From Octopus vulgaris (lineage: Eukaryota), in the NCBI GenBank assembly GCA_951406725.2, contig OX597820.1, forward strand, positions 93,992,001 to 94,056,000: a DNA stretch of 64,000 nt. Direction: 5' to 3'. The notes below the pieces were generated by a model. The model made no database searches, was not told the DNA's origin, and saw only the letters and a list, made by a program, of their open reading frames with translations. The translations under genes and the position numbers were made by a program. This document shows positions 19,214 through 44,021 of this stretch, one piece after another; within the stretch, counting starts at the first letter, position 1, and the number at the start of each line of letters is the position of its first letter.

Positions 19214-19510
19214 CTGTACAGAAAAGTAATAAGAGACCTGCATAAGATTCGACCATTGGTCTTGTGACCAGGATTAGTCACTAAGATAATGTGTTCTCAT
19301 CAGTAATATCGTGTAATTTCCATTAATTAAAATGTGGTGGGATTAGTCTATCGAGTATGTTGATGTCTTTCCTCTCTCTCTCTCTCTCTCTCTTCCTCAT
19401 ACATACTCACTATACCCCATACACTCACACACACATGTACTCACTCACTTCACACGCAGACACACAGTCACTTCATACACATACACTCACATCACATACA
19501 CACGCACATC

Positions 19511-19705
19511 GAGGGATTTTCTACGTTGTCATTCGACTTTTAGAAATAGCAGAAAAATGTCATTCGAATCGCACTCTACCGTTCTTAGAAAAGGAGGATA
19601 CACTAGACAACAAATTCTTTGAAATGCAAAATTACATGAGAGCCACGGCTGGAATGCTTTTTATCATATATCTACTAATAAGAACTAACCTGGGAATAAA
19701 GAACA
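19511..19705 (+). repeat. Family D copy (in the putative intron)
   Basis: TTAGAAATAGCAG...CACGGCTGGAATGC...AACCTGGGAATAAA. Confidence 0.65.
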
Positions 19706-19764
19706 GCGTACACATATACCTAAAATATATAGTATTACATTAAACTAATATCATAGATAATTGA

Positions 19765-20256
19765 TCAAAATGGACAACTAAAAACTAGCTTACCGGGATA
19801 ATTCGAAGATAGATCAAGCGCTTCTTTGTAAGACTTCAAAAGAACTGAATTATCATTTGATTTAAAACACAACATATTCGACCAAGTCGTGAATTTTAAG
19901 TTGTGCTTCCTTCGTCTGCGATATGAATGAAATTCCCTCCTGCTCCCTTGCACAGCGGTTTGTGAAGTGTTCGGGTCTTCCCCATCGCTCGGTTCATTTT
20001 CAGCCTTCATCATTTCCTGGTCGACTCCTTTCATACACTGTTCTACTTCCTCCGCTGTTTCTTCTGTTACTGTTTCTTTTCTATATAAATTTCTCATTTC
20101 TACAAACCTATTATACCAGTCATACACAGTAGATTTCTTCAATGAACTTGTACTATAGGCTGCTTGTAGTAGCTGAAAAGTTTCATCCACAGATTTACCG
20201 AGTCTGACGCAAAAGTTTATAACACACCACTGTTCCTTTAGGAGAGCGTTACTCAT
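19765..20256 (-). CDS. Mariner/Mos1 transposase HTH-domain protein (HTH_48, GVQW3-like), probably the first coding exon of a spliced gene
   Basis: EQWCVINFCVRLGKSVDETFQLLQAAYSTSSLKKSTVYDWYNRF matches the mariner N-terminal HTH pattern EQR..IKFC.KLGKSA.ET..ML..AY....L....V..W..RF. It is followed by an acidic linker and RRRRK. There are in-frame stops upstream of the ATG and a donor G|GTAAGC at 19794/19793. Confidence 0.8.
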   Translation of the reverse strand: MSNALLKEQWCVINFCVRLGKSVDETFQLLQAAYSTSSLKKSTVYDWYNRFVEMRNLYRKETVTEETAEEVEQCMKGVDQEMMKAENEPSDGEDPNTSQTAVQGSRREFHSYRRRRKHNLKFTTWSNMLCFKSNDNSVLLKSYKEALDLSSNYPGKLVFSCPF

Positions 20257-20830
20257 TTCGGAGATGGAGCAGGTGGGGATTTATGTTTTTCAGTTCTTCT
20301 ATACACTCTGCATTAGTTGATACAACATATGTACATACAGACGGATGAATATAAATAATATATACGTTATTAGATGATGCTAAATAATGTAGTTAAGATT
20401 GGCCACGTCTTTGCAACATTAATTTACAGACTTCGTTGATGAAAGTATTCAGAAGAATGGAAAAGCTATGAATGCAATTAAAAATTAATAAGAAAAACCC
20501 ATTTTAAGAATAATTAACATCCAAACCAACCAATTATAATGTTTCACTTATAAGTAATTAACCAAAATACTTAAACTCCAGCTTCTCTCCATCTACAAGC
20601 CACCTTCATAATTTTGTATCTGAAGAGGAATGTTCAAGATTTATGTCAATGTCAAATGCTAGAAAGATGAGTCAATATGTTGCCGGGTTACCGATTGAAA
20701 GGTTTGCAGTTCGTGTGTTGTTAGCTGTTGTGCATTGTGTCTTAGAAAAAGACATACTTAAATGTCAACGGCTCAATTCATCAGGGTATATAACTATATT
20801 TCACACAGGAGGCTCATAGCCTATAACATT

Positions 20831-21249: not shown

Positions 21250-22585
21250 CTTTTGAGGACCAGTAGTTAAAGTAAGTGAGGGTCTTATTTAACTTCAGGA
21301 AATCCGTACAGAGTGGAAAAAATTCCATCTTTTTGCTTATCTTTCTTCTGATCTCAATCTTTCTATTGTCCCTTTTACATTACTGAGAGTTTCCGATATT
21401 CTTCTAATCTCTTCAGGCTTTTTCTTTTTCCACAACCATAAAGGGTTTCCTACCCTCGTAACTCCTGGCCAATCATGTGCTGAAGGTTTCTTGGTCATCA
21501 TCGATTCCTAGCGCTCGCAGCGCCGAAGATGAGATAATTTCGTTTGCTTCTGATCTAGATATGATCAGATTAGAGACCAAGTGTGCTCTAGAAACAGTCA
21601 CTGTCTTAATCTCTGGTGCCTACTCTTATTAGTACAGCTACTTCTGTTGCTGTTTTTTCTTTTGTTCTTCTGCACGTGGCCTTTTATGCCACGCGCGGAG
21701 CAACTAGGGCTTCTGTCCTGCACTGCCATTCCCATTGAAAGCTTCTCCACTCCCTAAATGTGGTGTAGCTCCAGAGTAACCTTGTAATCATCAAAAGTTT
21801 AACAGAACTTGGAGATGCAAACCGACCTGACCACATATTATTGCTGGTCACGTTTGTGCCCACGTCATGTGTGTCCTGTGAGCACAAGTAACTACAATGA
21901 CAAACTAATGATTAACGATAATGCCATTATGTGAGGCCATGCCAAATATTGTGGCAATAGCCTTTTAGAGTTAGAGTGCATCAGCGCTACTTTACTCCTT
22001 GCCTGAATACCGGTCTTAAAGACCACTCCTATCAACCACTGAGAACGCATCTTGCCGTACATTGGCTATGGTTTCCTTCAATTTTTCTTTCGAGAGTATA
22101 CAGAAACATACCAATTTTTTTCTTTTTTGTAAAAATAAGAGGTATTTCACCTTCTTCCATGACCTTTTTTCAATAAATTCGTCGGGTAAAGAGGCAATAC
22201 CTTTTGTAACGAACTTCTTCCTTTGCCTCTTTTTTCTTGAATTTGCTGAAGATGAGTCGCTTCTTTTGACTCATGAGATTTGCAAAGGTGGAACCTGGTA
22301 GTTGTTGTAGTTGATGTTCGTACAGTTTTTTCATTCAAATAAACATTTTCAACATTAGTATCGTTTGTGTCTCCCATTGTAAACAGTAGGCGTTTAAATC
22401 TGAACATTTTCCTGCACGTTTGATTCTTTCCCATTATCTGATTATTCTAAATTCTGCTTTTTTTGTTTTTGTTTTGGGTTTTTGTGTTTCAAAATAATTT
22501 GAGGGTGTGTGTATTTACATTACTGAGGCTATTGCTATTACACTGTGCTGACTTCCATGTTATTCGTGAAGCGGCCATTTTGCAA
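21250..22585 (-). pseudogene. Decayed LINE ORF1 (gag-like, zinc knuckle) with 5' UTR
   Basis: 21723-21661 reads VQDRSPSCSARGIKGHVQKNK, a damaged GR.P.CX2CX4HX4C knuckle. Frameshifted coding-like sequence extends upstream to ATG 22434. Confidence 0.55.
22571..22582 (-). promoter_or_regulatory. YY1-like site
   Basis: CAAAATGGCCGC, about 140 bp upstream of the ORF1-like ATG. Confidence 0.35.
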
Positions 22586-41537: not shown

Positions 41538-44021
41538 GTGAGTATATAAGTGGAATCTAAACGTTACACCATATTTGGTTCAGCTCGATTTTGATTGGCT
41601 GACAAGAGAAATGTGTAAGGAACACGGAACAGTAATTTATATATCAAATGGATATCAAAGACACACAATATTTATAAAATATATATAAAACTATATCAAA
41701 CGCAGAAAACTCTGCATGAAATACACACACAATATCTAAGAGACATATGCAAATGTTATGAAACATACACACTATATACATCCAAATATATACAGACTAC
41801 AACTGTGATGATAATCAGTTGAACCAGACGTCATTGTTGGATCGTGTATATATTTAAATTATGACTCAAGTTCTGTCGTGGTCGATAAAATAAGTGGCAG
41901 TTGATTATACAAAAAGAAATCATTAGATCGTATCTAAATGTTATGAAATATTTAACCTTACATTCATCATACTTTACTGTCATAACTAGCCGTGGCTGAT
42001 GTTGCGTAGACATTTGCTGTTGCCTAGGCATACGGTATCAACTAGTCGGTGTAACTGTTGTTTGTCATTCACAGCTTTCCACAGCTCATCTCTTTGAAGG
42101 AACTGCAATGCTGACTCAAGTGGAGATCAAAACTAGGCGTTTGCTATCAGAAATACTATCAGGCGCTTACCGCTCTTTACTACTAAGGGAATGTGATCTA
42201 CAGCACTTCTTTAGTAGCATTTTGTAGAGGACTACTAGTAGCGAAGAGTGAAAAAATTCTCCAGAAAACTCTGGACATCGACAAGAATCAACAAGCTGGT
42301 CTCATCTAAAGTACTGGGCCCGACAGAATCGACTGTTCCTTCGCTTCAAATCTGCGGACTTGTTAAAAACCATTTGAGATAATGGTGGATCGTTGATCGA
42401 AGTACCATCCTCTAATTAGTATCGTCTGCCTCATCCCCACCAATCCAACACTTCAGGAATTGACTTTGTGTTAAATTCCTTTCGACTGTTGATGAAAATA
42501 AATACCGGTAATACAAGGGATCCTATACATTATACAAATTCCTTTCGCTTCAGTTATTGGCCATGTGCATTGTAGAAACAGATCATTATTTTAAATAGAT
42601 AAATTTCAGAAGTAGGTATACATCATTCGAATATTTTATTTATTTATTCACTTATTTATTACATTCCACCGAATAATTCACCATTTATTCTTTATAGCAG
42701 AACAAATACGAGATCAGCAACGTTCATGGAATATTTCGAAACTTCAGTCTCAGATTTAAAGGTCGATATCATGATTCTTCTTTACAGTTGCCTTCAAGAA
42801 TAATAACATTAATGGCCGATACTAACGTGAGAATGCATGCTTTGAATCAGACTACAATTTTTTTCCTTCGGTGCATGTTAAAATATAACTTAATTATCTT
42901 ACATGTTCCGAAGACTTATAACAAAACTACAAATTGCTCCGCTAAAATGATCCCTAGGTCATGTAGTGGTGATAGAGATGATGATAAAGCAGACAAGAGT
43001 GTTAATTCAACCACCCACCAAACAAGAATATATTTTCTAACACGCTTTCACAGTTTTGTCTACCAACTTTTATTCAGAAAACTTTAGTTCAGCCTATGGT
43101 AGACCTTCAGGTGGGCTAAAGTTGAGGCTAAAGGCTTAACCAAATGGTTACGTGATTAAGACGTTCGTTTCGTAGATATGTTACTTCAAGTTCATTTCCA
43201 CTGCACGCATTTTGATCTGCTTCTGCTAGCAGCTCTCTGAATTTTTAACTGGATTTTGTCTCTCTTCTTCCATGTACGACCAATATAGGAATGGATCAAA
43301 TGATAGTTGTAAAAGCGAAGTTGTTGTTACTCTTCCTGACCGCCTTGCTTTGAAATATCTAAGCAGCTTCAATGATGTTAAAGTTACTCCTAGTATAACA
43401 TAATCACAAATTATGTTTGCTTTTTCAACATCTTTACTGCAGCGCCATCAAACAAGCTTGCTTTATATTATTATGGTAAAAGAGAACTAGTTTCGTTTGA
43501 AAAGCCAAGAATCAATCAAAGTGGAAACAATATTAGTGGGGATGGTGATGTTGATGTTGGTGTTGGTGGTGGTGGTGGTGGTGGTGGTGTTGAAGGTGAT
43601 GATGATTGTCTGGAAGATGGTTATAATAAAGAAAGAGAAGGAGAAAGAGAGAAAGAAAAAGGATAAAAGAAAATTGCAAGAAAAAAAAATCGAACGAAAA
43701 GAGAGAGAAAAAAAACGAAAAGCCGAAGATAAAAAAATAATTCTTTTTTTTTTATCTAGAGAGAAAAAGAAAGAGTGAAGAGAAATACAACAAAACAAAA
43801 CAAAATGAAAGAATGAATGAATGAATGAATGAATGAAAGAAGGAAGGATGGAGAAAAAAGGCTAGAAAAATGAATGTGGTTTGAAAAGAATGGAGAATGT
43901 GTTGTAACAATATATAGAGGTCAGATGGTGAAAAGACAATAATACATTGAGGTCAACAACTGATGATAATATATATATTGTGAAGTCAGTTTGATATAGA
44001 CTTTAGTATAGTATATTATAT

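Follow-up and report, generated by a model that had tools for sequence, protein, structure and literature searches.

A probable single-copy coding exon that begins with the first helix-turn-helix domain (HTH1) of a mariner transposase was identified in a 64,000-nucleotide stretch of the Octopus vulgaris genome (contig OX597820.1, G000:C7 in the coordinates below, positions 93,992,001–94,056,000; hereafter the window), and this transposase-derived exon has in all probability been domesticated by the host. The exon lies on the minus strand, in an open reading frame (ORF) of 163 amino acids (P0001; ATG at 20256, stop at 19765–19767). We lean modestly toward the reading that the captured exon gives rise to an HTH-M6 isoform of a neighboring proteolipid gene, which would act by pairing or by binding proteins.

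A previous reading of the sequence alone (the sequence-only reading) had described a stop-free gene of 163 codons and gave no strand. The open frame was confirmed, but the coding exon most likely comprises 154 codons plus one base and ends in phase 1, and a 163-residue gene is less likely (Table 1). The last nine codons are probably intron read-through because the tails of homologous proteins diverge there. The splice donor after base 19794 ranks sixth among the 4154 GT sites on the minus strand of the window; this donor, the acidic linker and the RRRRK motif (residues 113–117) are all present as that reading had listed them. Pfam analysis of 150 of the 254 longer ORFs in the window between 1 and 36 kb found only the P0001 ORF above the cut-off. 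Its length is unremarkable, as 11 of the 76 other HTH matches in the genome are also open for at least 150 amino acids. Several short upstream ORFs are visible in the likely 5′ region of the exon and suggest that its output may be low. All 20 other genomic matches of the searched stretch fall within the SINE-like repeat.

Table 1. Features of the mariner-derived exon and its surroundings (positions in the window)
Feature	Position	Strand	Basis or remark
Mariner-derived exon, coding part	19794..20256	-	154 codons plus one base; homologue tails diverge beyond
HTH1 three-helix domain, residues 1–55	20092..20256	-	Pfam HTH_48 at 12–51; pLDDT 92–98
Acidic, fast-evolving linker, approximately residues 59–100	19957..20082	-	Likely eroded transposase linker/HTH2
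Basic cluster RRRRK, residues 113–117	19906..19920	-	RRRKR in P0002; absent from the P0004 group
23-residue block, residues 124–146	19819..19887	-	Identical in P0001 and P0002
5′ splice donor GTAAGC, phase 1	19788..19793	-	GT-site ranking
Read-through tail to stop, likely intron	19765..19793	-	Frameshifted or unalignable between homologues
Likely 5′ untranslated exon part	20257..20465	-	Guessed-RNA contigs reach 20335–20468, none beyond
Candidate acceptor AG	20467-20466	-	Moderate, rank 242 of 3107
SINE-like dispersed repeat just past the exon, unrelated	19507..19730	.	20 other genomic matches, 69–84% identity

Residues 12–51 of P0001 matched the Pfam profile HTH_48 (PF17906; E value, 4e-7; score, 30.4 bits; cut-off, 24.1), which bears out the earlier assignment of residues ∼8–52 to the mariner/Mos1 N-terminal HTH. 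The absence of terminal inverted repeats (TIRs) and of a DD34D core was also borne out: the longest inverted match between the exon flanks is 11 bp, and no DDE/DD34D core was found in the window by tblastn with resident mariner ORFs or in the ORF by Pfam. At the DNA level, the ORF has no copy elsewhere in the 2.8-Gb genome by a search that leaves out very common words, and the other HTH matches in the genome are only 32–46% identical to it. High-copy, near-identical matches with TIRs were not found. The TIRs, core, and similar copies of an active or non-autonomous mariner transposon are therefore lacking. Mariner relics are numerous in the genome, which also has at least one mariner open frame of 358 amino acids.

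Two proteins, P0002 and P0003, shared 75% identity with P0001 over 97% of its length; their frame is kept through a five-residue indel, and divergence starts just after YPGKL. When 1.84 billion representatives were searched with a profile, P0004 came next (approximately 39% identical to P0001; 84 bits); of the lower matches down to 50 bits, P0005–P0013 look like ordinary mariners, several of them with repeated domains. When P0004 was searched back against the genome, this locus was the best match (79 bits; runner-up, 48). P0001, P0002, and P0004 formed one clade (support 100/97) in an HTH1 tree, for which the 50 closest sequences out of 170 were taken and only 54 columns were available. Among the 170 HTHs, the HTH1 of P0001 was 69% identical to that of P0004 vs. 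at most 49% to those of other mariners. No longer protein containing the exon was found among 184 candidates retrieved with P0001, and no further orthologue among 804 candidates of 89–349 amino acids retrieved with alignment A3. A metagenome scan yielded three loci at 47%, all of them ordinary mariners. An Atlas search with P0001 returned HTH_48 leads only, all below 0.8. In each of the eight exon-type proteins, a terminal PG precedes residues compatible with a GTAAG or GTGAG (GTRAG) donor, and the tails vary beyond it. Proteins P0153, P0155, and P0156 have the same first 166 residues and then differing tails, each fitting a GTRAGT start; P0004 and P0154 differ by three to five residues, yet carry the tail of P0153.

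The pattern of substitution was assessed by protein-level simulation on P0001 and P0002, whose identity is 47/52 within HTH1 vs. 41/66 over residues 53–118. Their 35 differences had a mean BLOSUM score of +0.49 compared to −0.4 in neutral simulations (p = 0.0002–0.0008), and five differences fell within HTH1 where 11.5 were expected under neutral simulation (p about 0.005). A windowed test for clustering of the differences did not reach significance (p = 0.13; longest run, p = 0.03). The amino-acid changes thus look selected, with constraint centered on HTH1. Together with the single copy and the grouping of the orthologues in one clade, this supports the host gene status that the sequence-only reading had proposed.

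The tail of P0004 matched the linker, HTH2, and WVP-equivalent region of mariners (0/500 shuffles as high with two profiles), whereas for the tails of P0001 and P0002 67–222 of 500 shuffles scored as high with two mariner profiles (132 and 222 for P0001). The AT-hook linker and HTH2 were not recognizable in P0001 or P0002 in this shuffle-tested comparison. Capture therefore probably took in the entire N-terminal region of the transposase, which has eroded further in the P0001 lineage. A novel C-terminus, as had been suggested, is accordingly doubtful: P0004 keeps the linker and HTH2, although the tail of P0001 itself has no significant homology, and 326 of 2000 shuffles scored as high as its in-frame comparison with the P0004 tail. 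Read in a shifted frame, window positions ∼19870–19940 of the minus strand resemble the HTH2 start of resident mariners (5/600 shuffles as high, post hoc); with a general mariner profile, 302/600 shuffles scored as high as the same match. Part of the tail may, as a hint, have arisen by frameshift.

AlphaFold prediction from an 89-sequence alignment gave three helices for residues 1–55 (pLDDT 92–98); the prediction from an eight-sequence alignment (pLDDT 42) was unusable. The best Foldseek matches were SETMAR (7s03) and Mos1, with rmsd of 1.1–1.4 Å over 44–47 residues and E values above 0.001; superposition on Mos1 HTH1 covers 44–47 residues at 1.1–1.2 Å. HTH1 is net basic and keeps Lys41. Dimerization of Mos1 requires its first 55 residues (PMC3561948), and the SETMAR dimer residues F344 and F363 correspond, in our own mapping, to F15 and Y34, which are conserved in all three lineages. 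A two-copy complex prediction for residues 1–62 scored 0.12. The AT-hook linker and HTH2 of SETMAR supply 12 of its 14 base-specific hydrogen bonds (PMC9062482). We read HTH1 here as a putative pairing or recruiting module because the dimerizing part is kept, the part that makes the base contacts in SETMAR is lost, and parallels exist in Caenorhabditis F-box A2 proteins and in M6 itself.

A region of 1.264 Mb (93.392–94.656 Mb) was scanned with a simple splice-site and composition exon finder, which is blind to terminal exons and at first missed M6 exons 2 and 3. Of 206 candidates in the first 464 kb, the HTH exon and an ATG-to-phase-1-donor exon at 93.9124 Mb ranked highest. Downstream of the HTH exon, the first minus-strand chain belongs to a PLP/M6 gene with exons 2–7 phase-continuous to the stop, and the exon finder returned no other exon chains between 93.65 and 94.39 Mb. 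Exon 2 (G000:C7:93,652,894–93,653,034) matched PF01275 (E value, 6e-5) at 23.4 bits, just below the whole-protein cut-off of 23.8, and its first match in Atlas scored 0.90. The paralogue's exon 3 finds its best match in exon 3 here. The later exons, which have no Pfam match, were placed by position, phase, and likeness and are presumably those of M6. Exon 2 has a phase-1 acceptor and lacks a start codon of its own and thus needs a phase-1 first exon. The donor of the HTH exon (G000:C7:94,011,794) is in frame with this acceptor (93,653,048) over 358,746 bases (359 kb); the prior for being in frame is 1 in 3, and seven ATG-to-phase-1-donor candidates were observed on each strand, a chance-level number. 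A second PLP-family gene, at G000:C13:74.12–74.13 Mb (L134, L135), also has a phase-1 exon 2.

On the minus strand, T exceeded A by 3–8% between 93.59 and 94.196 Mb; the segments that begin at the M6 body and reach 94.19 Mb gave 3.3, 7.6, and 4.4% (56/62 bins positive). The excess fell to 0.5% farther on (12/19 bins positive; change point 94.196 Mb, p = 0.003) and reversed sign in the first six bins at a plus-strand CUB gene. This skew probably reflects a minus-strand transcription unit of approximately 600 kb that includes the HTH exon. Three strict polypyrimidine-YAG/GTAAGT sites were found when both strands of the 1.264 Mb were scanned, all three on the minus strand between the HTH-exon donor and M6 exon 2; at the loosest threshold, three of five such ratchet-like sites lie there. 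The thresholds for both skew and sites were picked after the data had been seen. The sites (G000:C7:93,929,260, 93,803,075, and 93,709,586; L060, L072, and L102) are ∼90–125 kb apart in the giant first intron of the M6 gene. Recursive splice sites are defined as an acceptor with a donor directly behind it, on the sense strand of a long intron (PMC4829307), and the three sites fit this definition as candidates for such use. Given the strand skew and the ratchet-like sites, the HTH exon probably sits in sense orientation in the M6 pre-mRNA, which does not in itself demonstrate joining to exon 2, and both features may serve a distal M6 promoter only.

Other candidate first exons were observed on the minus strand. 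The exon at 93.9124 Mb (L061:372–473), single copy with 26 codons from its ATG and a perfect phase-1 donor, likely serves M6 as an ordinary alternative first exon; an Atlas search with it returned nothing. At the edge of the skew, an ATG exon of two codons at 94.2023 Mb (L088, ∼6287) has a perfect phase-1 donor; together with a 54-nt exon, single copy and of phase 1-1, at 94.0776 Mb (L076:1620–1674), it likely forms a distal M6 start. Neighboring genes (L119–L131 and L153–L177) on the minus strand include a class-III aminotransferase gene (Pfam; exon finder) and a gene recovered by the exon finder that we take to be ZRSR2-like. On the plus strand, CUB-domain exons begin at ∼94.42 Mb, and inverted duplicated segments occupy 94.46–94.63 Mb. 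An Ion_trans_N match at window positions 43394–43663 (plus strand; E value, 0.0016) was under the cut-off and was taken as chance.

At least 10 sequencing contigs from eight runs of five studies cover the exon, all within 19794–20468 and at a depth of 2–12; seven runs were guessed to be RNA, every such label being a guess, and the kind of one is unstated. The end of one guessed-RNA contig of run X4 coincides with 19794 (chance about 0.012), which is a weak hint of splicing at the donor. In the eight runs, no contig links the exon with M6 or with any other exon. Run X12 also has exact contigs farther upstream, in DNA that is single copy (21414–21793 and 22163–22381), which may be pre-mRNA, DNA, or further exons, so contig cover alone does not prove an exon. 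A p value of 0.005 for no contig crossing the exon boundaries was set aside since the runs had been chosen for holding this stretch.

In the proposed mechanism, the mariner exon would be an alternative first coding exon of the giant M6/proteolipid gene. Its donor at 19794 would be joined to M6 exon 2 over 359 kb, stepwise via the recursive splice sites, and the HTH-M6 isoform would be translated from the transposase ATG. A membrane protein with four passes would thereby carry the HTH1 pairing module at its cytoplasmic N-terminus, where the module could dimerize or bind partners and so cluster or target M6, with TIR DNA not being read. In Drosophila, M6 occurs as six isoforms distinguished by their cytoplasmic N-terminus, and the protein interacts with itself (PMC11698045).

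The same selection and clade evidence (the P0004 back-search, the BLOSUM scores, and the tree) would be expected of a gene nested in an M6 intron and spliced to a short terminal exon of its own, which would encode a small soluble, probably nuclear HTH1 protein acting as a regulator or dominant-negative partner of mariner transposases. We consider this unlikely, while noting that the basic cluster is retained in P0001 and P0002, that the genome has numerous mariner relics besides at least one open frame of 358 amino acids, and that the tails of P0155 and P0156 stop after 11 and 33 residues and bear no likeness to M6 exon 2. These tails may be ratchet intermediates, belong to other species, or result from splicing to non-M6 exons; the sequences behind the ratchet-like sites agree with them over no more than two residues. 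However, no partner exon was identified for a nested gene, the basic cluster is missing in the P0004 group, and the HTH exon has the orientation of M6 and a frame that suits M6 exon 2, acceptor-like sites lying between the two.

Two further readings concern what the domain does, if anything. The sequence-only reading had suggested that the product binds mariner TIRs as a regulator. A sequence-specific binder of TIR-derived sites, like SETMAR, would agree with the net basic HTH1, its Mos1/SETMAR-like fold, and Lys41, as well as with the HTH2-like segment still present in P0004. Nevertheless, this suggestion is poorly supported and very unlikely: the AT-hook linker and HTH2, source of most SETMAR base contacts (PMC9062482), are undetectable in P0001 and P0002; R371 of SETMAR is replaced by Ser in P0001 and P0002 and by Pro in P0004, with the limit that contacts do not carry over between families (PMC9062482); and the captured HTH1 domains of F-box A2 proteins are reported without TIR DNA binding (PMC12062965). 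Also very unlikely is a neutrally decaying mariner relic whose frame is open by luck. Open frames of this length are found among the other HTH matches (11/76), the probability of remaining stop-free by chance at the P0001–P0002 divergence is 0.08–0.12 (weak evidence alone), protein databases contain open frames only, and the RNA cover could come from M6 pre-mRNA. Neutral decay is opposed by the conservative substitutions and HTH1-centered constraint, by an HTH1 69% identical to that of P0004 next to tails that cannot be significantly aligned, and by the divergence of homologues right past the donor.

Several known systems resemble the proposed HTH-M6 isoform in part. The Caenorhabditis F-box A2 proteins likewise carry a Mos1-type HTH in one N-terminal exon whose transposon flanks are gone (PMC12062965). 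The accessible text of that report describes purifying selection on the HTH, roles in localization and protein binding, and no detected TIR binding (PMC12062965). F-box A2 is a multi-copy soluble family with a demonstrated fusion (PMC12062965), whereas here a single-copy exon would be fused to a four-pass proteolipid. In SETMAR and other vertebrate fusions, a mariner DNA-binding region was spliced in (PMC9062482; bioRxiv 10.1101/2020.05.07.082677), and the HTH1 fold and dimer-interface aromatics are found here too. Of nine traced vertebrate host-transposase fusions, eight used a transposon-supplied acceptor after host exons, and the products are nuclear DNA-binding proteins (bioRxiv 10.1101/2020.05.07.082677; PMC9062482). 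Unlike SETMAR-type fusions, the transposase part comes first here and ends in a donor, and the recognizable linker and HTH2 are lost. Compared to Mos1, the exon is without TIRs, catalytic core, and copies. Drosophila M6 and vertebrate GPM6A (PMC11698045) have in common with the gene here the PF01275 family, two juxtamembrane cysteines where exon 2 begins and, apparently, a choice among several N-terminal exons. The accessible text mentions no transposon-derived N-terminus for them (PMC11698045). The gene here apparently spans ∼600 kb. No account of the exon was found in the literature within reach, including the accessible text of PMC10027918, most subscription papers lying outside it.

Capture of transposase domains is known, and HTH1 on an M6 membrane protein would be a new variant of it if the fusion is true. 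Captured transposase domains have so far mostly been DNA-targeting modules of nuclear proteins; an HTH-M6 isoform would extend such capture to membrane proteins and would use self-pairing instead of DNA reading. Neurite growth and cell junctions are the processes with which the M6 family is associated. The locus also supplies candidate recursive splice sites in a mollusc. It is possible, though a little short of probable, that cephalopods possess an ancient M6 isoform with a mariner dimerization domain at its N-terminus, whose first exon is recursively spliced over 359 kb and which organizes the membrane protein or, if cleaved, may carry a signal from the membrane to the nucleus.
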